Of a stretch of 64,000 nt of DNA, positions 1 to 42,392 are shown in pieces (the stretch's first letter is position 1; the number at the start of each line of letters is the position of its first letter). Origin of the DNA: Bacteroidota bacterium. Its GTDB lineage: Bacteria; Bacteroidota; Bacteroidia; Chitinophagales; LD1. The stretch is taken from NCBI GenBank assembly GCA_025963485.1, contig JAOQAO010000041.1, positions 20,114 to 84,113 on the forward strand, in the 5' to 3' direction. The notes below the pieces were generated by a model. That model was not told the origin of the DNA, did no database searches, and saw only the letters and a program-made list of their open reading frames with translations. The translations under genes and the position numbers were made by a program.

Positions 1-1
1 T

Positions 2-364
2 TTGCTAGGCATACTCTATTTGAGAAGAACCGTACCTGACCTTGACCAAATAGGGATGCAAATGATGATATCATTGATGATCGATGGTATGTACAAGGAT
101 GATAGTGCGAAAACTATGTTATTGGACAGATTAAGGCTAAATGGCAATATAAACGTAATAAACAATAAGGACGTTCATATTTCCGAAAAAGGAGTATTGT
201 TTTTATTGGAAGAAGGTGGTTACACAAAGAAGAGGAAGTTTCAACTTATTGATGAGGAAATTAAGGCCAAAACCTTAAAGAAGTTTAGGTGGGATAGAGT
301 TGCAGTTATATTAAGCTTGGCAGCTTTGGCTGTTTCCATTGCGGTCGCATACCACAAGTGGTGA
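2..364 (+). CDS. hypothetical protein, 5' end cut by window edge, C-terminal TM anchor
   Basis: The ORF is open to the window edge; the TTG at 2 is only the first in-frame codon. It ends in the hydrophobic stretch VAVILSLAALAVSIAVAY. It is AT-rich and I recognise no family. Confidence 0.35.
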   Translation: MLGILYLRRTVPDLDQIGMQMMISLMIDGMYKDDSAKTMLLDRLRLNGNINVINNKDVHISEKGVLFLLEEGGYTKKRKFQLIDEEIKAKTLKKFRWDRVAVILSLAALAVSIAVAYHKW

Positions 365-427
365 GTTTCGTGGTGGAAAAGTGAGGGTGCGGGGATCCAC
401 GTTGTAAAGGCGGACTAGTGGAGCGGG

Positions 428-1255
428 TTAGGTGCTTTTAGAAGATGATTGTTTCTTTTTTTCGCGTTTTTCCCTAAAAGTCTTGAATTGCCAATCTTCT
501 ATTTCATTACAATTATCTTTTATTATTGTTTTATCCAAAACACTCGAATACTTAGGATATAATTCAAGAAAGGAATACAGCCTATTTACCGCGCCATCAT
601 AATTGCTGTCAAAGGCTGAGATATGATCATATATATATTGATTTACATTTGGTGAAAATGCTAAATCATATTTTTCATGAAGATAAAATGCCCTTAGAAT
701 ATTTGCTTCTCGTGTAGGGTTATATTTCTTGTACTCAATATTTGCTTGTTGAATATCTAAGATTTTAGATTTAATGCATTTATTATAATACTCGACAGAT
801 AATTTCTTAGATGTGTATGCAAAAACGGGTGAGTCAAAATTATAGAAGGCCCCTCTAGAAATGGATCTTGTTTCATTTGGATCTGAGGTAACAAGGTTTT
901 TTCTAAATGCCCAATTATCAGAGAGGGACCAAATATCCATTTCCATTTCATCAAACAATAGTTTGAAACCATTATGCCTATTTCTTTTGTGGGGAATATG
1001 AAGAATATTGATCAACTTTTGTATCTCCTCTGCAGATACATTACTTATAACATCAATATCTCTACTCGGTTTATCATTTATAAAATCCCTTACAAATCCC
1101 CCTACGAAATATAATTCACCTCTATTTTCAAGCCTATACTCGGTCATCTTTCCAACAAAAAAATCCATCCGACTGTCTTCACCTATAAGGCTTCTTATAT
1201 ATGTGATAAACTCTCGCTTAAATTTATTCTTATCGATAATTTGCTTTAGCTGCAT
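428..1255 (-). CDS. minimal CCA-adding/poly(A)-polymerase head-domain (pol-beta) nucleotidyltransferase
   Basis: GGFVRDFINDKPSRDIDV matches the GGxVRD...DxD catalytic signature of the CCA/PcnB head domain. At 275 aa there is no room for a tRNA-binding body or tail. Its ATG (1253-1255) directly abuts the TAG of the upstream dGTPase gene. Confidence 0.7.
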   Translation of the reverse strand: MQLKQIIDKNKFKREFITYIRSLIGEDSRMDFFVGKMTEYRLENRGELYFVGGFVRDFINDKPSRDIDVISNVSAEEIQKLINILHIPHKRNRHNGFKLLFDEMEMDIWSLSDNWAFRKNLVTSDPNETRSISRGAFYNFDSPVFAYTSKKLSVEYYNKCIKSKILDIQQANIEYKKYNPTREANILRAFYLHEKYDLAFSPNVNQYIYDHISAFDSNYDGAVNRLYSFLELYPKYSSVLDKTIIKDNCNEIEDWQFKTFREKREKKKQSSSKST

Positions 1256-2650
1256 CTATAAAGAAATACCTTTTATGTTTTGATAGAGATTTAAAGCGTA
1301 ATGATCTGTCATGCCACTTAGAATATCAGTAACTAACTGATATTTGCAATAAAGCGGATTAACATTGGAAGAAGCACTATAGGTTTCATATATGAATCTA
1401 TATGTTGAAGATATGGTATAATAAAGTCGTCTCGCTTTGGTATTTTTTCCGCTTAAAGAGAAATCACTCATCGAGCAAGCTGGAATATACTCTTCTAGAA
1501 GGCCAGTTAATACTTTATAGCCCGCTAATTCTGTCTGAATAATTTTTTTATCATCGAGTACAATTTTCATGAGACCTTTATATGCTTCTCGAACTGATTT
1601 ATGTTCAAAACGATCCAGAATTTCTTCGTTGTAGCTTTCATTCATAAAATCTTCGTAATTTTTTAAAAACTCATCAACTACAGCGATGATCATTAAAGAC
1701 TGTGTTGTTATCCTGAAACGTTGAATTGTTATATCTAATCTTCCTAATCCAGTATTTTTAAGTTCCTGATGAGTATCCTCAAGCTCTTTAAGAAGTTGCG
1801 CATAAATCGCATTCTTTTTATCTAAGTGCGTCTCAAACACTTCTTTGATTTTATCAAAATTTAAAATTCCAAGTTTTACTCCATCTTCAATATCTGCAGC
1901 AGAATATGCTATATCATCCGCAGCCTCTAATAGATAGGTTACTGGATGGCGATTACCATTTAGATTTAAGAAAGTGTCAATCTTGTTATAGTCCTCCTGC
2001 TCGGTTATGAAGTAGCCGGATTTCTTTTCATTTATATGAGTTCGTTTGTCTTTTTTGTTTCCGGAAATTGAGCTTCTAGGATATTTTATTATTGCACTTA
2101 AAGTTGGATAAGTAAGATTGTAACTATTCTCATCTTTTAAAAAATGAAGTTTCCTTAAAATGCGAAAAGCTTGAACATTCCCATCAAAATTCTCAAAATC
2201 AGCTATTTCTTGAGGGCTAAATTTCTCTCTAATTGTTTCATCTTTAAAATGAGCCTTGAAAAAATCTTGAATAGCAGTTTCTCCGAAATGACCAAAAGGA
2301 GGATTTCCAAGATCATGCACTAAACCAGCAGTAAATAGAAGAGAGGACATATAGCCCCTTAACTCGGGATTTAGTATTTTTTTTTCAATTAGCGCTTCCT
2401 CTACGCTTTTCCCAATGCTTTTAGCTATAAAACTTACTTCAAGGGAATGAGTTAATCTTGTTCTTATAAAATCACTTTTTTCCAAGGGAAAAACTTGAGT
2501 TTTATCTTGTAATCGTCTGATTGGAGGACTAGATATTAATCGAGAATAGTCATCCTCGAATGGATTTCTTTTATCAAGAGGATTTCTCTGCCCTAATGTT
2601 CTGAATCTTTTGTCCGTTAAAAGGACACTCCAGCGATCATCATAGTTCAT
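1256..2650 (-). CDS. dgt: dGTPase-family dNTP triphosphohydrolase (HD domain)
   Basis: Family motifs present: RTRLTHSLEVSFIAKSIG, HDLGNPPFGHFGE, and an N-terminal DDYSRLISSPPIRRLQDKTQVF. The 464-aa length fits the family. The coding sequence is AT-rich. Confidence 0.85.
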   Translation of the reverse strand: MNYDDRWSVLLTDKRFRTLGQRNPLDKRNPFEDDYSRLISSPPIRRLQDKTQVFPLEKSDFIRTRLTHSLEVSFIAKSIGKSVEEALIEKKILNPELRGYMSSLLFTAGLVHDLGNPPFGHFGETAIQDFFKAHFKDETIREKFSPQEIADFENFDGNVQAFRILRKLHFLKDENSYNLTYPTLSAIIKYPRSSISGNKKDKRTHINEKKSGYFITEQEDYNKIDTFLNLNGNRHPVTYLLEAADDIAYSAADIEDGVKLGILNFDKIKEVFETHLDKKNAIYAQLLKELEDTHQELKNTGLGRLDITIQRFRITTQSLMIIAVVDEFLKNYEDFMNESYNEEILDRFEHKSVREAYKGLMKIVLDDKKIIQTELAGYKVLTGLLEEYIPACSMSDFSLSGKNTKARRLYYTISSTYRFIYETYSASSNVNPLYCKYQLVTDILSGMTDHYALNLYQNIKGISL

Positions 2651-2748
2651 GTCTTAAATTTTAATAATTAAAGATAAGTTTTTGTAATAAATCAGCTTTA
2701 TAAATTTATCCTAACGGTACCTTAATTTAGTCATCGCTTGTCGCCGGA

Positions 2749-2838
2749 CAGGGATAGAAGCGGATAGCCCGGAGCGAGCGCAGTCCCGAAGGGCAAGCGA
2801 ATGAGGACTAGGAGCGGATAGCCCGGCCCGAAGGGGTC
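2749..2838. repeat. GC-rich intergenic repeat (GGGATAGAAGCGGATAGCCCGGAGCG / GAGGACTAGGAGCGGATAGCCCG blocks)
   Basis: Both blocks recur at 49494-49625 with a few substitutions and a longer spacer. Confidence 0.7.
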
Positions 2839-2965: not shown

Positions 2966-2996
2966 TTTGTTTATTTGATGCAAAAGACTACATTTG
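2966..2996 (+). promoter_or_regulatory. candidate Bacteroidota promoter for rplU-rpmA
   Basis: TTTG at 2966-2969 and TAcaTTTG (TAnnTTTG -7 box) at 2989-2996, about 20 nt before the rplU ATG. Confidence 0.4.
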
Positions 2997-3016
2997 CACT
3001 CCCTAAATGTAAAATA

Positions 3017-3325
3017 ATGTACGCAATAGTAGAAATAGCAGGACAGCAGTTTAAGGCCGAAGCAGGCAAAAAGCTCTATGTCCACAGGCTCGAGGGCAAC
3101 GAAGGTGACAAGCTGACCTTTGACAAGGTTTTGCTGACTGATAACGGCAGCGCAGTGAGTGTAGGTGTACCTACAGTAGCGGGTGTAGCTGTGACGGCAA
3201 CGATCCTCAGGCACCTGAAGGGTGACAAGGTGATCATCTTCAAGAAGAAGAGGAGGAAGGGATACAAGAAGCTGAACGGACACCGTCAGTCTTTCACTCA
3301 GATCAGCGTAGACAGCATAGCTTAA
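3017..3325 (+). CDS. rplU: 50S ribosomal protein L21
   Basis: [25 protein letters not shown] is a typical L21 N-terminus. I chose the ATG at 3017 rather than the upstream in-frame start at 2975. Confidence 0.9.
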
Positions 3326-3357: not shown

Positions 3358-3624
3358 ATGGCACACAAGAAAGGTGAAGGTAAAGTAAAGAACGGTAGGG
3401 ACTCGCATAGCAAACGTCTGGGTATCAAGATATTCGGCGGCCAGACTGCTGAGAATGGCAATATCATCTGCCGTCAGAGGGGTACAGCGTACCATCCTGG
3501 CAAAGGTGTCGGAATCGGCAAGGACCACACAATATTCGCAGTAGTGGATGGCGTGGTGAAGTTCACTAAGGGTGCTAACGACAGGAGGTTCATCCACGTG
3601 CTCCCGGTAGCTGCAGAAGCTTAA
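3358..3624 (+). CDS. rpmA: 50S ribosomal protein L27
   Basis: [29 protein letters not shown] is an L27 signature. The gene follows rplU. Confidence 0.92.
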
Positions 3625-4985: not shown

Positions 4986-7652
4986 TTAGCGGCTGATGAC
5001 GAATGGGATACGGACAGAGCCGGATCCTCCGAGTACTGTCAATATATATGATCCGCCGGTGATATCGCTAAGCTTTATGGACTGCCTGTCAGCGGTGACC
5101 GGCTGCCTGCCCACGATACGGCCAAGCATATCTGATACGATATACTCCTGTGCTTCCATGGTCTCCAATACGAAGCTGCCGTTATTAGGGTTAGGGTATA
5201 GCTTCACAGCACTTGTATTGCTCGCTTCATTGATACCGATGATCATATAGTACACCGGTGCAGATGTATCGACACAGCCATTGGCATTGCTGACAATGAC
5301 GCGATAGTAGCCTGTCTGTGTGACGGTGTGCGTGACGCTATCGGCACCCGGTATGATAGTGTTGTCTACCAGCCACTGATAGCTGGTGAACGATGGAGAG
5401 GTAACTACAGAGTTGCCCAGAATAGAGGCTACCGGAGCCGGTTTGGCTATAACTGCCAAGCTCAATGTCACAATGCTGTCGCAACCACCTACTGCATGCA
5501 GAGAATCGACAAAAGTACCCGCTGCAGTCAGTACCTGACTGCCAAATGTATATGAAGTACCGGCGCAGATCGTATCTGTCAGTGATGTGCTGGCAAAGCT
5601 GCTCACTGTCAGATGGAGGGTCACTGTGCTGTCGCAGCCATTGACCGACCCGCCATTGATGGTGACGTTATAGTTGCCCGAAGTAGCAAAGCTCTGTGTG
5701 CCTACTGTATAAGATGAACCTGTACAGATACCTGCAGTGATGGTAGAGGTAGCAGGGGTTTTCACCGTCAGGTGGAGAGTCACGATGCTATCGCAACCGC
5801 CTGCTGCGTGGAGTGAGTCAACATAAGTGCCCGCAGTGGTCAGGTTCTGTGTACCAAAGTGGTATGAGCCACCGGTGCAGATGCTTTGATTCAGCGTAGT
5901 GCTGGCAAAGGTATTTATACTGAGGTTCAGGTTGATGATACTATCGCATCCGTTAGCCGCTGCACCTGTGAGGGTCACTGTGTGAGGACCTGCGGTATTG
6001 AATGATTGGCTACCGATGGTGTAGCTCGATCCCTGGCAGATAGAAGCCGTGATCGCATTGACGGCCGGCTGTTTGAGGGTCAGGTTCAGCGTGATGATGC
6101 TATCGCATCCGTTGGCCGCTGCGCCTGTGAGGGTCACTGTGTGAGGACCTGCAGTATTGAATGACTGCGTGCCTACCGTATAGCTGGAGCCCTGGCAGAC
6201 AGATGCATTGATCGTCCTTGTAGCAGGCTGTTTGATGGTGAGGTTCAGTGTAATGGTACTATCACATCCGTTAGTAGCGGCGCCGGTGAGGGTCACTACG
6301 TGAGGACCTGCGGTATTGAATGACTGCGAACCCACCGTATAGCTCGATCCCTGGCAGACAGCAGTATTGATAGTATTGGTAGATGGCTGCTTGATGGAAA
6401 GGTTCAGCGTGATCGTACTATCGCATCCATTGGCGGCGCCACCTGTGAGCGTGACGACGTGAGCGCCTGCTGTATTAAACGATTGCCCGCCTATGGTATA
6501 GCTGGATCCCTGGCAGACAGATGTGGTGATGGTCCTTGTAGACGGTTGCTTGATGGTGAGGTTCAGTGTGATGGTACTGTCGCAGCCGTTGGCTGCACCA
6601 CCGGTCAGTGTGACTACATGCGGACCTGAGGTATTGAATGATTGCCCACCTACTGTGTAGCTCGAGCCCTGGCAGATCGATGTGGTGATGGTCTTCGTGG
6701 CAGCTTGCTTGATGGTGAGGTTGAGTGTGATGACACTGTCGCATCCGTTGGCTGCAGCGCCTGAGAGTGTCACTACGTGTGCGCCGCCGGTGTTGAATGA
6801 TTGCCCGCCCACTGTATAGCTCGACCCTGAGCAGACCGAGGCATTGACAGTTTTGGTAGCGGATGGTTTCATAGTCACAACGACTGATGCTGTAGCGCTA
6901 TTCCCGCCATTGGTGACTGTGACGGTATAAGTGCCGGATGTTTTGACTGTGATAGCACGCGCGGAAGAGGGCGTATTCCAAAAGTAAGTAGAGCCTGCAG
7001 GTCCCGCAGTGAGTATCACTGAGTCACCCTGGCAGAAAGTAGTAGCTCCGCTCGGCGTGATAGTAGCTGTGAGCGTAGAAGTGGCGCAAGATGCAGTGGT
7101 ATATGCTATGAATGGATTGGTAGCTCCGTTCACTGTATCCAGTGCAGGACAGTTAGCTGATGCGCATTTCACACGCAGGTAGTAGCGGATGGCCGGAGGG
7201 AAGAAATTTGCGGAAAGTGTCTCCAGGTTCTGGTTGGGAAAAGGAAATGCACCGCCTCCCGCGCTGGCGCTGACTATGATCCTTAGCTTATACTGGCCAC
7301 GGGGCGCAATACAGCGGCCGCTGATCAGGATAGCACCGGTCTGCCCTGCAGTATATGTGTTGTTGGCCACATTGGTGGTCCAGCAGAGGCCTGCGGGGAG
7401 ATTCTCGATAGAGTCAAACCTGACAAAGTCGACCGGGAGACCCGATATAGTCGTAAAGTTCTCAAAGTAGAGCGTATCAGATACGTTGGTCGCGGAGTCG
7501 ATACATGGTATCCGGTCCGTAGATGGCGAGAAGCCCGGACTGCCTGAAGCCGTATGTGGAGTGACGCTATTGGTCGCAGCTGCACAGTGTTGCGCATAGG
7601 TCGCTACAGAAAAGAGGCTAAATACAATAGCAAAGAGTAGGACTTTTTTCAT
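4986..7652 (-). CDS. secreted tandem-repeat surface protein with T9SS C-terminal sorting domain
   Basis: Signal peptide MKKVLLFAIVFSLFSVATYAQ. Nine repeats of 51-53 aa, each with two Cys. C-terminal KLYPNPNNGSFVLE...YILTV is a Por-type secretion tail. Confidence 0.85.
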   Translation of the reverse strand: MKKVLLFAIVFSLFSVATYAQHCAAATNSVTPHTASGSPGFSPSTDRIPCIDSATNVSDTLYFENFTTISGLPVDFVRFDSIENLPAGLCWTTNVANNTYTAGQTGAILISGRCIAPRGQYKLRIIVSASAGGGAFPFPNQNLETLSANFFPPAIRYYLRVKCASANCPALDTVNGATNPFIAYTTASCATSTLTATITPSGATTFCQGDSVILTAGPAGSTYFWNTPSSARAITVKTSGTYTVTVTNGGNSATASVVVTMKPSATKTVNASVCSGSSYTVGGQSFNTGGAHVVTLSGAAANGCDSVITLNLTIKQAATKTITTSICQGSSYTVGGQSFNTSGPHVVTLTGGAANGCDSTITLNLTIKQPSTRTITTSVCQGSSYTIGGQSFNTAGAHVVTLTGGAANGCDSTITLNLSIKQPSTNTINTAVCQGSSYTVGSQSFNTAGPHVVTLTGAATNGCDSTITLNLTIKQPATRTINASVCQGSSYTVGTQSFNTAGPHTVTLTGAAANGCDSIITLNLTLKQPAVNAITASICQGSSYTIGSQSFNTAGPHTVTLTGAAANGCDSIINLNLSINTFASTTLNQSICTGGSYHFGTQNLTTAGTYVDSLHAAGGCDSIVTLHLTVKTPATSTITAGICTGSSYTVGTQSFATSGNYNVTINGGSVNGCDSTVTLHLTVSSFASTSLTDTICAGTSYTFGSQVLTAAGTFVDSLHAVGGCDSIVTLSLAVIAKPAPVASILGNSVVTSPSFTSYQWLVDNTIIPGADSVTHTVTQTGYYRVIVSNANGCVDTSAPVYYMIIGINEASNTSAVKLYPNPNNGSFVLETMEAQEYIVSDMLGRIVGRQPVTADRQSIKLSDITGGSYILTVLGGSGSVRIPFVISR
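5436..6854 (-). repeat. 9 tandem coding repeats (about 153-159 bp each)
   Basis: Consensus unit: xTIxxSVCQGSSYTVGxQSFNTAGPHVVTLTGAAANGCDSTITLNLTIKQPxT. Units 1-6 are near-identical; units 7-9 have diverged. Confidence 0.9.
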
Positions 7653-12793: not shown

Positions 12794-13489
12794 CTAATTA
12801 ACCGGAGGGCCTGCAAAAGAATTTTGGCGATAAACTGCCTTTATCCGATTGTAATCAATCTTTGCTGCATATCCCAACGCTTCAAGTTCCTCAAGGGTTT
12901 TGGTTTTTAGAGTTTTGGCTATTACTTTCTTCTCCTCATTCATATTAGATGTCCAAATTTCTCGGAGACCACTACCCGTGTAGTACTCAACTTGAAATAA
13001 TTCGTTTATACCTAAGATTCCGGCAGCGAAAATTTGTTCGGAAACATCAATTAATTGTAATGCAGATCCCGTCCTTAATAGTTCGAGTTTTTGCGAATAG
13101 CATAAAAAACTATAAGGAATAGGTACCCCACCTATTACTGTTTCACCGACTTCGAAAAGATCAGTTTTGAATGGGAATACCGCGTTAATGTTTTGTACGA
13201 AGGGGTGATTCGAGTTAACTACTTCTATATGAGAGACCAATAAGTATTCCCTATCAGTTTTTAAGTATTCTCTAAGTTGAAGCAATATATCTTTTGCTAA
13301 ATGCTCATTATCAAAACGGTCGAATAAAGTAGCACTAAGAATAATTTTGTACTTGGACAATGGATTGCCATTATCCGTTGGAGTAATTAGCATTAGCGAA
13401 TAGTTGTCACCTCTTAAATGAAATCCAGCAGTTTTTAAGAAGTACATTTCTAATGCGGTCCTAATTCTAAATATTACATTATTCAACAT
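12794..13489 (-). CDS. hypothetical protein, partner of the HEPN gene
   Basis: 231 aa, AT-rich. Its ATG (13487-13489) abuts the TAA of the upstream HEPN gene. I could find no GSx(n)DxD nucleotidyltransferase motif. Confidence 0.5.
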   Translation of the reverse strand: MLNNVIFRIRTALEMYFLKTAGFHLRGDNYSLMLITPTDNGNPLSKYKIILSATLFDRFDNEHLAKDILLQLREYLKTDREYLLVSHIEVVNSNHPFVQNINAVFPFKTDLFEVGETVIGGVPIPYSFLCYSQKLELLRTGSALQLIDVSEQIFAAGILGINELFQVEYYTGSGLREIWTSNMNEEKKVIAKTLKTKTLEELEALGYAAKIDYNRIKAVYRQNSFAGPPVN

Positions 13490-13906
13490 TTACCATATTT
13501 TTTTTAACCAACTTAAAATCCCATTTCCTGGGTTTTCCAATGCGACAAGTAGTTTTTCAACGAATAAAACTGTTTTACCTGATTCATATCGCCAAGATTC
13601 ATTCCAACCGTTAATTGTACTATAATTTAATTGGAAATCTGGATCAGCTGCAGCCTTATCATCGAATTTTTTTCTAATTCCACCCAATCTAATCAGTTGA
13701 TCAAAATTATGCGTTTTATATACCTTTCCAAGGTCACCGGTATCAGGGTAATCCGCATCTAGAATTTTACATATTCTTGCTTTTAAAGCTAATTCCAAGC
13801 TATATCCTGTGAGATAGGCGGCGCCCTCATAACATCCGTTATCTTTTAAAATTTTAGCCTCTTTTAATCGAATTTTGGAAAGACTCTTTAATTCTGCTCT
13901 AGTCAT
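13490..13906 (-). CDS. HEPN domain protein
   Basis: AKILKDNGCYEGAAYLTGYSLELALKARI...THNFDQLIRL...WRYE follows the four-helix HEPN (PF05168-type) pattern. 138 aa. Confidence 0.6.
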   Translation of the reverse strand: MTRAELKSLSKIRLKEAKILKDNGCYEGAAYLTGYSLELALKARICKILDADYPDTGDLGKVYKTHNFDQLIRLGGIRKKFDDKAAADPDFQLNYSTINGWNESWRYESGKTVLFVEKLLVALENPGNGILSWLKKIW

Positions 13907-23414: not shown

Positions 23415-25334
23415 ATGAGAAAAAGCATCCTGTCTTTGGTCTTGTTACTTATCGCAGTTCATTTTTCTTTTTCGCAGGCTGTGACGTATGAGCACGCTAA
23501 GAAAAGAGCGCAGACGCATTTCGATGCGGGGAATAATGCCTACGCATTTGGACGCTATGCAGCAGCGGACTCATTGATAAAAATAGCGATAGAGAGTGAG
23601 AAAAATTTCATCGATGCGCACTGGCTATTGGGTAATATGTACCTGGAGAACCAGCGTAAATTTGATGCGGCAGTGACCGAATTGAAACTCGTAGAACAAC
23701 TCAATCCTGATTACCAGGCGCAGCTGAAACTGAAGATCGGTTATGCTCTGTTCAATAAGGGCGACTATGACGAGGCCAAGAAATACTTCCAGGCGTTCCG
23801 TGCACAGAAGATCACTCCGGACTATGAGAAAGAAGCTGACCATATGATCGCAAATTCGGACTTTGCAAAGGAGGCTGTGAAGCATCCGGTAGCATTTAAA
23901 CCTATCAGCCTTGGTAGTGGCGTCAATTCAAATGAGGATGACCTGATGCCTGCGCTGACTGCTGATGAGCATTGGTTGTACTTCACGAGGCTGGAGCGGA
24001 TAGGCCGGTTTCATGATGAAAATATCTTCGTCTCGGAGAATAGAAATGGCACCTGGTCTGAGGCACAACCTCTGGGAGAGACCATCAATACCTTGCAATA
24101 TAATGAGGGGGCACATTGCATCGCGCCAAGCGGCAAATACCTTTTCTTTACCTCATGCGACAGGCCGGGTAGCTATGGAGGCTGTGATATTTATTTCTCC
24201 AAAAGAACCGGCGGCGAATGGGAGCCCGGTAAAAATCTCGGTCCTGTGATCAATACAGCGGCTAAAGAAACACAGCCTTATATCACGGGAGACGGACGCA
24301 CTTTATATTTTGTGAGTTCGCGCAAAGGGGGCTACGGCGGCGGAGATATATACTCCTCGACACTGGGTGATGATGGCAAATGGAGCGAGGCACATAACCT
24401 CGGCCCGGAGATTAATACAGACCAGGAGGAGGAGCGGCCGTTCATACATCCGGATGGATTTACATTGTTCTTCACATCGCGCGGTCATGAAGGGATGGGA
24501 GGCGCGGACTTATTTATGTCGCGCAAGCAGGCTGACGGGACCTGGGGCAAGGCTATCAATATGGGCTATCCGATCAATACTCCCGGCGATGAGATCGGAA
24601 TATACGTGACCACTGACGGCCATTGGGCCTACTTCGCATCGGAGCAGGCCGATACCAGAGGAGGCATGGATATCTATAAATTTGAAATGCCGGAAAACCT
24701 CAAACCATACCCCGTGAGCTATGTGAAAGGCGTGGTGACGGATAAGGACAATGGCAATCCATTGACATCTAAGATCCAGTTCTTTGATCTCGCTTCGGGA
24801 GTGATCTACTCGACTGCGTCATCTGATCCGAAGACTGGTGAATACCTGGCGACCCTTCCTACCGGAAAGAACTATGCCTGCCAGATATCCAAAGAGGGTT
24901 ACCTGTTTTATTCAGCTAATTTCTCGCTGAAAGACGTAAAGGAGGGAGGAGCCTATATCATGGACATACAACTGCAGAAGATCAAGGTCGGCAGCAGTGT
25001 AGTATTGAATAATGTGTTCTTTGAATCAAACAGCTATGAGCTGAAAGAAGAATCGAAAACAGAACTCAATACGCTGATAGAACTGATGACAAAGAACCCA
25101 TCGTTGAAAATAGAAATAGGTGGCCACACGGATAACTCCGGTATCGAAAAGGAAAATGAAACACTATCTCAAAACAGGGCAAAGGCAGTCAATGACTATC
25201 TGGTATCCAAAGGTATCTTAGCGGGACGCCTGACATACAAAGGCTATGCTGCTACTAAACCTATCGCTGATAATAAAACGGCGGAGGGTAAAGCAAAGAA
25301 CAGGCGTACGGAGTTTATGGTGACGGGAATATAA
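23415..25334 (+). CDS. OmpA-family protein with TPR and TolB-like (PD40) repeats
   Basis: N-terminal TPR, repeated PD40-like blocks (YFTSxR..GGxDIY), and a C-terminal OmpA core GHTDNSG...NRRTEF. Confidence 0.8.
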   Translation: MRKSILSLVLLLIAVHFSFSQAVTYEHAKKRAQTHFDAGNNAYAFGRYAAADSLIKIAIESEKNFIDAHWLLGNMYLENQRKFDAAVTELKLVEQLNPDYQAQLKLKIGYALFNKGDYDEAKKYFQAFRAQKITPDYEKEADHMIANSDFAKEAVKHPVAFKPISLGSGVNSNEDDLMPALTADEHWLYFTRLERIGRFHDENIFVSENRNGTWSEAQPLGETINTLQYNEGAHCIAPSGKYLFFTSCDRPGSYGGCDIYFSKRTGGEWEPGKNLGPVINTAAKETQPYITGDGRTLYFVSSRKGGYGGGDIYSSTLGDDGKWSEAHNLGPEINTDQEEERPFIHPDGFTLFFTSRGHEGMGGADLFMSRKQADGTWGKAINMGYPINTPGDEIGIYVTTDGHWAYFASEQADTRGGMDIYKFEMPENLKPYPVSYVKGVVTDKDNGNPLTSKIQFFDLASGVIYSTASSDPKTGEYLATLPTGKNYACQISKEGYLFYSANFSLKDVKEGGAYIMDIQLQKIKVGSSVVLNNVFFESNSYELKEESKTELNTLIELMTKNPSLKIEIGGHTDNSGIEKENETLSQNRAKAVNDYLVSKGILAGRLTYKGYAATKPIADNKTAEGKAKNRRTEFMVTGI

Positions 25335-40659: not shown

Positions 40660-42213
40660 TCAATTGCTATTTAATAGTAATAGATTATCACGACAATGAC
40701 TAGCCCTAATTAGATTAGATTCAGAAGGAAAGAGTTCAAATGTGCGAATCGCTGATTCAAGATTCTCCTTGGCTTTTTTCTTGTCATTTAGCTTATAACA
40801 TGCATGAGCCATATTGGAGTATACTAAAGCCATGTTTGGATGTCCTGAATCAAATCGTTTTTGGTATATTTCTAGGGCATCATTATAAAAGACAAGTGCC
40901 TCTTTATATTTAGATTGATCTTGTAGAATCAAACCAATGTTATTTAATCTTATGGCTATCGTTGGATGCTCAAAACCATAGGTGTCGATATCTAAATTTA
41001 AAGATATAATATATAATTCTTTAGCTTGTTTAAAATCCCCAAGGTTATGCCAAGCAGCTCCCAAATTGCTATACACAGTTGCTATATGAGCATTGCTATC
41101 CTCCCTACTGATAAGATGTATTTTTAAGGCTTTGTTATAGTAGTTTATGGCTTCTGCCGGCTTTCCTTGTTCATCCAAACAACATCCTATATTATTATAT
41201 CTTATGGCTATTTTGGGATGTAAACTGTCGTACAACCTTATTTCTATTTCAAGAGCTTTAGAATAGTAGAAAATTGCCTTTTCATAGTCGCCAGAAATTT
41301 TCCAAGCCATTCCTAAATTATTACATAGTATTGGATAAACCTCATCTTCGACTTCATTATTATTTGAATGTATTTTAACTGCTTTTTCAAAAATTAATAT
41401 CGCATCCTTATGAATGCCTAATGTGAGCGTCATAAAACCAGCTTCATTTAGATACAATAAGTTGCTTGGATCTAATTCGGATGCCTCTATATAATATTTT
41501 AGTGCATCTGAATATTTCAATTGTAAACTGGCATATCCTCCTATTTGAAAATATGTTTCCGCTAATTCTTTTTTTTGTTTTTCTGCTATTTGCTCCTTTA
41601 ATAGTTTTTCAGCGTCAGCGAAATTATTGTGAGCATCAAAATCTCGGAGCTGATCTTTAATTTTCTCAGTAAAGGTGCCTTTATTCCTTTCTTTCTCCAG
41701 TTCGCTTTTTAAGCGAATTATTTCATCAACGGATAGTTGTTGCGTTTGATGGAACTGAGCTTTTTCCTGAGTAATGCTTTCTAGGTCTTTTTTTACTTCT
41801 TTCAAAGCAGTTAAAACATCTGCATACTTTTCTGGATCGATTCCAGTAATATTTTGATTTTGAATAATTGTAGTTTGGGTAAAGTCTCTGCTTTTAATCG
41901 AGACGTTTTGAGAAAGATTATAATTATTTACAATGGTATTTAAAGCTTCAGTATCTTCTGGTTTACTCTTTAAAGCTAAAGCCAATTCTTCTATTAAAGC
42001 TTCTTTTCCTTCCTCACTAGGCTTTGCCTCATACTGGGCTAATACTTCTTCAGATTTTTTATCTCCATTAAATATGTCTTTGATCTTTGTATAGATATCT
42101 TTGCCTATTTCCTTGGCAATGCCCTTTCCCACTTCTTTAGCAGATTCTGTTAGAAAGGCGATAGTGACGGCGGAAGTGGCAAGTTGAAGAAGCTCGGGAG
42201 GCGAGAAAATCAT
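40660..42213 (-). CDS. TPR-repeat protein (kinesin-light-chain-type TPRs) with unknown N-terminal domain and coiled coil
   Basis: At least seven 42-aa TPR_12-like units (A...Y..AL.I......HP..A..Y.N.G) in the C-terminal 300 aa. Charged helical region at about aa 120-215. The gene is AT-rich. Confidence 0.75.
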   Translation of the reverse strand: MIFSPPELLQLATSAVTIAFLTESAKEVGKGIAKEIGKDIYTKIKDIFNGDKKSEEVLAQYEAKPSEEGKEALIEELALALKSKPEDTEALNTIVNNYNLSQNVSIKSRDFTQTTIIQNQNITGIDPEKYADVLTALKEVKKDLESITQEKAQFHQTQQLSVDEIIRLKSELEKERNKGTFTEKIKDQLRDFDAHNNFADAEKLLKEQIAEKQKKELAETYFQIGGYASLQLKYSDALKYYIEASELDPSNLLYLNEAGFMTLTLGIHKDAILIFEKAVKIHSNNNEVEDEVYPILCNNLGMAWKISGDYEKAIFYYSKALEIEIRLYDSLHPKIAIRYNNIGCCLDEQGKPAEAINYYNKALKIHLISREDSNAHIATVYSNLGAAWHNLGDFKQAKELYIISLNLDIDTYGFEHPTIAIRLNNIGLILQDQSKYKEALVFYNDALEIYQKRFDSGHPNMALVYSNMAHACYKLNDKKKAKENLESAIRTFELFPSESNLIRASHCRDNLLLLNSN

Positions 42214-42392
42214 AAGTAGACGTTTTGTACCTTAAACATAAGAAGATTTCCGTTTACCCTGTTTTCCACTAAATAAGACACAAAAGCAGTATCTTGCAAC
42301 CTCGTTTTGGCGGTGAAAGCTAATAATGGTGGTTATTCTGTCTACATTTCAACTTTTTTTCACCTTTCGTTGTGTATTTCGGGGAATAAAAT

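Follow-up and report, generated by a model that had tools for sequence, protein, structure and literature searches.

Two abutting genes in an AT-rich islet of a Chitinophagales genome raise the question of why a dGTPase-family HD hydrolase is encoded next to a minimal nucleotidyltransferase (NTase), and of what the two proteins do together. The genes occupy positions 428-2650 of a 64,000-nucleotide stretch (hereafter, the window) of contig JAOQAO010000041.1 from the Bacteroidota bacterium assembly GCA_025963485.1. A sequence-only reading had taken them for a candidate two-gene defence module and knew of no described system with this pairing. The present analysis indicates that the locus is very probably a horizontally acquired anti-phage system of the Clover family, belonging to a divergent, mainly Bacteroidota clade. 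The assignment draws on the homology of both proteins, the operon layout, the intact active sites and the partial conservation of the allosteric pockets, together with the co-occurrence of the two genes, their AT-rich composition and the defence-island neighbourhoods seen in relatives. The claim that the pairing is undescribed does not stand, as it has been published as Clover, comprising CloA and CloB (10.1101/2025.07.09.663793). The features central to the argument are the following.

1256..2650, minus strand: dGTPase-family HD hydrolase gene (cloA-like), 464 amino acids (aa), predicted effector.
428..1255, minus strand: nucleotidyltransferase gene (cloB-like), 275 aa, a minimal class-II CCA/PcnB-like, Pol-beta NTase.
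1253..1258, minus strand: TAG-ATG stop/start junction of the HD and NTase genes, read from the sequence.

On the minus strand the junction reads ...tta TAG ATG cag..., such that the HD stop codon (1258-1256) is followed directly by the NTase start codon (1255-1253) with zero spacer, as had been described. The abutment suggests translational coupling of the two genes.

Clover was described by Yamaguchi et al. as an anti-phage system formed by the dGTPase CloA and the NTase CloB (10.1101/2025.07.09.663793); a 2026 review gives it as published in 2026. According to the describing paper, CloA is a dGTPase that assembles as an octamer; by itself it is inactive, and it is allosterically activated by deoxythymidine triphosphate (dTTP), the level of which goes up when T5-like phages infect the cell. 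CloB, a Pol-beta NTase, makes an inhibitor constitutively. This product, which in both Salmonella and Xanthomonas Clover is 5'-triphosphothymidyl-3'5'-thymidine (p3diT), sits at the interface of the CloA dimer and keeps activation down. Strong toxicity follows when CloB activity is lost, protection against T5-like phages exceeds 10,000-fold, and more than 650 systems were counted in proteobacteria, Bacillus, Clostridia and Myxococcia (10.1101/2025.07.09.663793). The same paper credits Nicastro et al. 2023 with first spotting the dGTPase-NTase pairing bioinformatically. The Data Availability statement of the preprint gives the CloA coordinates as 8P9S-8P9V; the PDB entries with the CloA sequence and titles are 9P8S-9P8V.

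The NTase is, with the operon, the main support for family membership. The signature of the CCA-adding and PcnB head domain that had been pointed out in the 275-aa open reading frame (ORF), GGFVRDFINDKPSRDIDV, is present, and residues 48-108 of the protein match the Pfam PolyA_pol head domain with 31 bits (cutoff 23, E 3.5e-7). The top PDB sequence match is E. coli poly(A) polymerase, weakly. The AlphaFold model has a compact fold (predicted local distance difference test score, pLDDT, 92.8; predicted template modelling score, pTM, 0.88), and its top 46 PDB fold matches consist solely of class II CCA- and A-adding enzymes and PcnB. The model spans only the head and neck of these targets, with template modelling (TM) scores of 0.46-0.57 normalized to the query and 0.3-0.4 to the target; thus, the view that the protein is too short to carry a tRNA-binding body or tail was right. 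Scores against the NCBIfam CCA/PcnB models are 17-25 bits, compared with cutoffs of 290-702. A match to the PADLOC model PDC-M23A (E 0.011) was taken as chance and set aside.

The NTase motifs comprise G52-G53, the carboxylates D66/D68/D107 and the neck segment N179-P180...E183-A-N185-I-L-R188. Across 50 sequences the invariant positions are G52, G53, R56, D66, D68, N92, G96, D107, W109, W115, A116, F137, N139, D141, L166, N179, P180 and R188. The invariant D66-I-D68 and M-D107-I elements fit the CloB site [D/E]h[D/E]...h[D/E]h, and D66/D68 align with D71/D73 of Salmonella CloB (SeCloB), residues mutated in the Clover paper.

The SeCloB sequence was obtained by searching with the CloA sequence, which led to a Salmonella protein (100% identical, 471 aa) whose contig encodes the 277-aa CloB. 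Direct comparison of the window NTase with SeCloB gives 23% identity over 149 residues (pairwise E 1e-9). Intermediate sequences connect the two. The gene lying 3' of a CloA-like dgt on the B. thuringiensis plasmid pBT62A encodes a protein 33% identical to the window NTase (E 8e-23) and matches SeCloB with E 3e-15, and the NTase partner on a Phaeobacter plasmid matches SeCloB with E 2e-46. Alignment of the Bacteroidota NTase clade with the proteobacterial CloB clade by hhalign covers 200 columns with a probability of 99.35% and E 6.3e-21. When 72,556 plasmids were searched with the window NTase by tblastn, the only matches were on six Bacillus plasmids (E 5e-27 to 2e-14), where each lies shortly 3' of a dgt match found with CloA. 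The initial impression of a very rare family, based on ten relatives found by word-index search, was overturned by an exhaustive profile search of 1.84 billion representatives, which yielded 1743 CloB-like clusters at E <= 1e-3 and 529 at E <= 1e-30, counted at 50% identity. Among the 149 best clusters, 13 are nearer to the Bacteroidota-type profile. Judged from these alignments, the NTase is a distant but clear CloB homologue.

The 464-aa ORF contains the dGTPase/HD motifs that had been noted, RTRLTHSLEV and HDLGNPPFGHFGE, and scores 327 bits against TIGR01353 (cutoff 152). Its top NCBIfam model is NF002205, at 407.9 bits and under the equivalog cutoff of 439. The anti-phage dGTPase model NF041026 gives 191.5 bits and NF003701 gives 166.4 bits, not reaching their cutoffs of 400 and 383, respectively. 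The PADLOC dGTPase model, a general one, is matched with E 1.5e-69. The profile searches that the sequence-only reading had proposed thus place the HD protein in the dGTPase family and the NTase with the PolyA_pol head, while PADLOC calls the dGTPase only.

The closest PDB sequences to the HD protein are those of Salmonella CloA (9P8T/S/V/U), with 229 bits and E 7.8e-67 over residues 25-461, and the alignment extends through the C-terminal helical bundle. The L. blandensis enzyme (7tu0) and 3bg2 score ~199 bits, with alignments that end at residue 396; E. coli Dgt (4x9e) scores 197 bits over residues 26-460, and the stand-alone SpdGTPase (9P8W) 100.7 bits. Foldseek likewise returns CloA entries as the top matches (TM 0.81-0.83) of the AlphaFold model (pLDDT 79.7), narrowly ahead of E. 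coli Dgt. In a neighbour-joining tree the paired HD proteins cluster with CloA, apart from the Bacteroides and Haliscomenobacter Dgt proteins; this tree is weak evidence only, since it has no support values, short deep branches and three comparators.

All catalytic residues of the HD protein are intact. The metal ligands H69, H117, D118 and D242 and the dyad H126/E129 of Salmonella CloA (SeCloA) correspond to H68, H112, D113 and D245 and to H121/E124 of the window protein, and the six residues are kept in every clade member in an alignment of 40 HD proteins. Apart from Q127, which is F as in E. coli Dgt, the residues that contact dGTP are kept too. At H263, a residue of the CloA octamer interface, the window protein has D, but this position is variable even in near relatives of SeCloA.

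The allosteric residues named in the Clover paper (CloA numbering) were mapped on the same 40-protein alignment and on matched pairs. In the dTTP pocket of the window protein six of nine residues are identical (R47, D61, K256, S418, T449 and Y452), and these include the base readers D61 and T449 and the stacking residues R47 and Y452. The three changes are Q172 to H, N420 to T and the main-chain contact A444 to I. D61, which makes a base-specific contact in CloA, is V, V and A in three housekeeping-type comparators. In the p3diT pocket, the half that anchors the triphosphate and the first thymidine (R29, R38, N181, Q311 and R314) is fully kept, five of five, in the window protein and the clade. 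Q311 differs in all three housekeeping comparators (A, A and M), and at N181 the two Bacteroidota comparators have V and R, with N in E. coli Dgt.

The two genes also travel as a unit. In each contig inspected for the ten word-index relatives of the NTase, a 456-465-aa HD gene directly precedes the NTase gene in the same orientation. An NTase profile run against one genome per GTDB species gave 31 loci, a number that is a lower bound because the scan used a single peptide pattern typical of the clade. Almost all are in Bacteroidota, from Chitinophagales and three other orders (Flavobacteriales, Bacteroidales and Cytophagales); the remainder are single metagenome-assembled genomes (MAGs) labelled Cloacimonadota, Erythrobacter and Gammaproteobacteria. 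By tblastn and ORF extraction, the NTase is directly preceded by HD-homologous sequence in 29 of the 31 genome loci and in all four metagenome loci. The HD gene is intact in 23 of the genome loci (49-56% identical to the window protein), frameshifted in two, degraded in two and cut by the contig end in two. Of the other two loci, one is without upstream sequence and one (L036) has a truncated orphan NTase. The latter, in a gammaproteobacterial MAG, was considered as an alternative architecture and rejected, as its NTase is a truncated 169-aa remnant. The gap between the genes is -4 to +10 nucleotides in most loci in which both ORFs are intact, and an HD gene also precedes three further CloB-like genes of greater divergence. 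The proposal of a functional pair is thereby borne out. Decayed copies were found at the following loci.

L030 4527-5892; L010 4014-5438; L035; L037; L036 2069-2578: decayed copies.

In Psychroflexus tropicus and in a Saprospiraceae MAG the HD gene is frameshifted; other cases are an HD gene of which half is deleted and the orphan truncated NTase. These copies suggest that the system is frequently lost.

Several of the neighbourhoods inspected in these relatives hold further defence genes, in agreement with the proposed role in defence. The pair lies near a CBASS (cyclic oligonucleotide-based anti-phage signalling system) patatin and DncV-like pair, HicA and an ArdC-family gene (ArdcN and MPTase-PolyVal domains) in L001; near AAA_21/RloB, a Schlafen-like gene and GAPS4 in L002; near PLD and AAA_15 genes in L004; and near a type IIG restriction-modification enzyme in L025. 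Genes for a TcmP-like protein and DUF5131 (Gp37/Gp68), corresponding to the PADLOC candidate systems PDC-M30/M41, adjoin the pair in Dyadobacter and Epilithonimonas genomes (L020 2626-4496 and L007 6842-8702), and TcmP-DUF5131 genes also adjoin a Clover-like pair on a Phaeobacter plasmid (L005 1860-3878), so that this neighbourhood recurs across phyla. The GC content of the pair is below that of the distal flanks in 27 of 28 loci. Neither the NTase nor the pair was found in phages, in a scan of IMG/VR with the Bacteroidota NTase profile and a tblastn search of GenBank phages. Given the co-occurrence, the low GC content relative to the flanks and the defence-gene neighbours in relatives, the HD-NTase pair is a mobile two-gene module that keeps company with defence genes.

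In the window itself the pair is set in an islet of distinct composition.

1..2700, no strand: AT-rich islet with the HD-NTase pair, GC 0.334.
2..364, plus strand: convergent ORF fragment in the islet, 120 aa visible, cut by the window edge, GC 0.375.

The GC content of 428-2650 is 0.324, compared with 0.473 +/- 0.030 (minimum 0.370) for windows of the same size over the remaining 61 kb, which puts the islet ~5 standard deviations under the window mean. Both the pair and the ORF at 2-364 are thus as AT-rich as had been asserted. The right edge of the islet lies at ~2700, just ahead of a Flavo-1-like repeat and rplU, and the left edge lies beyond the window start. No tRNA gene or flanking direct repeat was seen at the islet border, and the 64-kb window contains no second dgt-like gene. 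The sequence-only reading had named four observations that would speak against its proposal, namely a conserved syntenic position in all relatives as the only dgt gene, an NTase that is a pseudogenised cca fragment, a GC content equal to the genome mean, and a pair without co-occurrence outside the lineage; none of these was encountered. The ORF at 2-364 has a hydrophobic helix at its C-terminus. It gave no matches in Pfam, PADLOC or NCBIfam and no homologue of it lies beside any other HD-NTase pair; it is a member of the islet by composition and probably not part of the HD-NTase system. The ORFs at 2975-3325 and 3358-3624 are read from their translations as ribosomal proteins L21 and L27 (rplU-rpmA).

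Between the islet and rplU, positions 2738-2832 (+) show a weak match to the Flavo-1 RNA motif RF01705 (26.6 bits, gathering threshold 42, E 0.018). The 14-mer AGCGGATAGCCCGG occurs twice inside this segment, and three further copies with 1-2 mismatches are present in the window, giving five observed where 0.34 would be expected by chance; the related motifs lie at 23995, 29557 (-) and 49504. The segment is probably a dispersed Bacteroidota repeat at the right edge of the islet.

By analogy to Salmonella Clover, from which the activities, the sign of regulation and the identities of the activator and inhibitor are taken by homology, the locus would operate as follows. The 464-aa HD protein would be a dGTP triphosphohydrolase that is off by default. 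A phage-driven rise of a deoxynucleoside triphosphate (dNTP), most likely dTTP, would switch it on allosterically, and the active enzyme would drain dGTP and thereby stall the replication of phage DNA. The 275-aa NTase, produced from the same transcript, would constitutively make a short 5'-triphosphorylated deoxy-oligonucleotide. This product would bind the dGTPase dimer interface and raise the activation threshold, protecting uninfected cells.

Several points weigh against this assignment. The function of the Bacteroidota clade is carried over from the Salmonella system by homology, and Bacteroidota are not named in the taxon list of the Clover paper. The HD protein is about equally near to a housekeeping Bacteroides Dgt (245 bits) and to SeCloA (227 bits), and Clover membership therefore rests mainly on the NTase and the operon. 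The alignment underlying the HD model was made of CloA-like sequences, which may bias the fold match towards CloA. The neighbours visible in the window are the housekeeping rplU-rpmA genes and the left flank lies outside it, so that the defence-island context rests on relatives only. In the dTTP pocket, Q172 (H or Y) and N420 (S or T) differ across the clade. Finally, four of the ten p3diT contacts are replaced clade-wide (R34 to N, D37 to G, F41 to S and N75 to Y), the window protein having D, S, S and F at these positions. The replaced residues include both readers of the second thymine and the residue that packs on its sugar. Because both pockets carry replaced contacts, neither dTTP nor p3diT can be assumed as the ligand.

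The replacements around the second thymidine, as read from the alignment, argue against p3diT itself as the ligand, not against use of the pocket. The NTase differs as well. Bacteroidota members carry the neck motif NPT.EANILR and have a shorter loop ahead of DxD; the corresponding neck reads NPQIELNLLR in the Bacillus proteins and NPxxxGA..R in the proteobacterial ones. From the motif spacing, the neck change appears to sit where class II CCA enzymes select the incoming base. As the inhibitor pocket of the HD protein and the neck of the NTase change in concert, the Bacteroidota clade might be a Clover variant whose inhibitor is another nucleotide, such as pppdT-dN in which the second base is not thymine, or a molecule that differs from p3diT in length or phosphorylation. 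This suggestion is tentative and somewhat more likely to be wrong than right; the concerted changes fit a changed signal, but plain co-divergence of two linked genes would also produce them.

Four other explanations of the locus have to be weighed against the Clover assignment. The sequence-only reading had offered the NTase as a sensor, a regulator, a second effector or a tRNA modifier. Of these, the role of regulator alone fits Clover, CloB being the source of an inhibitory dinucleotide; a second-effector or tRNA-directed role found no support. A sensor would imply a Clover-like layout with the opposite sign, in which the NTase acts as a sensor or signal synthase and its product turns the dGTPase on during infection, in the way of CBASS, Pycsar or Thoeris. 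Pol-beta NTases make activating signals in other systems, and the remodelled inhibitor pocket of the clade means that the regulatory logic may not carry over. However, the NTase consists of head and neck only, with no extra sensor domain, and is homologous over 200 columns to CloB, a constitutive inhibitor synthase. Moreover, the dTTP activator pocket of the HD protein is largely retained and a separate activator is therefore not needed, leaving this explanation unlikely. The pair could also be an addiction module of the toxin-antitoxin type that stabilises a mobile element, with a toxic dGTPase, an enzymatic 'antitoxin' and no anti-phage role. The strong toxicity that follows loss of CloB activity in Clover is reminiscent of such modules, and the pair is AT-rich and found in shifting contexts, among them a region resembling an integrative and conjugative element with the ArdC-family gene, plasmids and a site beside a transposase gene. 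Yet homologous systems protect more than 10,000-fold against T5-like phages, defence genes strongly predominate among the neighbours in relatives and the pair was not found in the phage or IMG/VR collections, which makes an addiction module decidedly unlikely. Each of these two explanations needs a departure from the homologous system that no data require.

That the NTase is instead a second effector or toxin, modifying tRNA 3' ends or other RNA in the manner of MenT or AbiEii, would accord with its fold, which is that of class II tRNA nucleotidyltransferases, and NTase toxins that target tRNA exist. The protein has no tRNA-binding body or tail, however, and scores only 17-25 bits against NCBIfam CCA/PcnB models with cutoffs of 290-700; in the case of CloB it is inactivation, not activity, that is toxic, and the product is a dinucleotide bound by CloA. 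A tRNA-directed toxin is thus very improbable. The least probable account, and hardly a credible one, is that a housekeeping dgt lies by chance beside a decayed cca or pcnB fragment with no functional pairing. It could appeal to the general dGTPase equivalog NF002205 as the top NCBIfam model and to the restriction of the Pfam match of the NTase to the head domain, but the NF002205 score stays below its cutoff (407.9 < 439). The NTase of 250-277 aa is a conserved full-length family (1743 representatives, ~20 invariant positions) with a confident and compact model, and HD sequence is upstream in 29/31 loci. The islet is ~5 standard deviations below the window mean in GC content with neighbourhoods that vary among relatives, while a genuine Bacteroides dgt is found beside dut, without an NTase.

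With the Clover assignment retained, comparison with known systems shows where the window pair conforms to the published system and where it departs from it. Shared with Clover are the gene order, HD then NTase, with a tight junction; all CloA catalytic residues and the CloB carboxylate triad; six of the nine dTTP-pocket residues and the half of the p3diT pocket that anchors its ligand; and the AT-rich, mobile character with defence-island neighbourhoods in relatives. In contrast to the Salmonella system, the window proteins are only 32% (CloA) and 23% (CloB) identical to their counterparts, and the genes abut, whereas Salmonella cloA and cloB overlap by 47 nucleotides. The window pair also falls in a separate, mainly Bacteroidota clade in which R34, D37, F41 and N75 are replaced and the NTase has the neck NPT.EANILR in place of NPxxxGA..R and the shorter loop ahead of DxD.

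A stand-alone anti-phage dGTPase, the Shewanella SpdGTPase, was reportedly the subject of work by Tal et al. in 2022. It shares with the window protein a dGTPase-family HD effector and predicted dGTP depletion (PDB 9P8W; NF041026) and is much more distant, at 100.7 bits to 9P8W and with an NF041026 score of 191.5 against 400. SpdGTPase lacks an NTase partner and, according to the Clover paper, its activity in vitro is constitutive (10.1101/2025.07.09.663793). The PADLOC dGTPase match of the window gene is such that automated tools would therefore label it as a stand-alone 'dGTPase'. The housekeeping enzymes (E. coli Dgt, L. blandensis 7TU0 and Bacteroides dgt) have the same fold and catalytic machinery, the same top models (NF002205/TIGR01353) and similar sequence distances (215-245 bits). 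They differ in having no NTase partner, a conserved context (the genuine Bacteroides dgt adjoins dut) and no AT-rich islet; they are also without D61 and Q311, and the two Bacteroidota comparators are without N181 too. On the Haliscomenobacter hydrossis plasmid pHALHY02 (L039 2426-5770), a dGTPase with 44% identity to Bacteroides Dgt has a 615-aa AAA-family ATPase encoded after it in place of the NTase, which may represent a different dGTPase-partner arrangement.

Class II tRNA nucleotidyltransferases and PcnB share the head motif GGxxRD...DxD and the helical neck with the window NTase, which is without their body, tail and RRD motif; by homology, its product would be a free dinucleotide and not an extended tRNA or RNA. 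Hailong, with HalB oligodeoxyadenylate, and Panoptes, with 2'3'-c-di-AMP, also use inhibitory nucleotide signals. In the accounts given by the Clover paper and the review they follow the same logic as Clover, in that the effector is kept off by a nucleotide made constitutively by an NTase. Their NTase families, effectors (an ion channel or membrane protein) and triggers are different.

Elsewhere in the window, two further patches of low GC content were observed. That at 12794-13906 (-), GC 0.39, contains two abutting ORFs of 138 aa and 231 aa. The former matches HEPN PF05168 with 21.7 bits, just under the threshold of 22, and the latter has no Pfam match; the patch may be a small HEPN-containing two-gene module. 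The patch at 40660-42213 (-), GC 0.389, encodes a 517-aa protein whose C-terminal half consists of TPR repeats (TPR_12, E 4.8e-41), and the adjacent ORF starting at 42307 resembles ribosomal protein S12 by translation. The 888-aa ORF at 4986-7652 (-) is composed mostly of tandem ~75-aa modules, …C.GSSYTVGGQSFNT.GPHVVTLTG.AANGCDS.ITLNL…, and from its translation looks like a secreted Bacteroidota surface protein.

The kind of system encoded at 428-2650 is already known, with structures and a mechanism, and the window copy is a divergent member of it. Apart from the changes in pocket and neck and the phylum in which it occurs, the locus is an ordinary instance of the published system. With it, Clover, a defence in which opposing nucleotide signals govern both the reading and the depletion of the dNTP pool, is extended to Bacteroidota, a phylum not named in the taxon list of the describing paper. 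The NTase partner is missed by annotation tools, PADLOC 2.0 and NCBIfam calling 'dGTPase' only. The remodelled inhibitor pocket and NTase neck offer a testable lead, namely that Clover signals may not always be p3diT. If the Bacteroidota clade does use a different nucleotide, the signal-receptor code would have diversified within the Clover family, in a manner comparable to the nucleotide diversity of CBASS.

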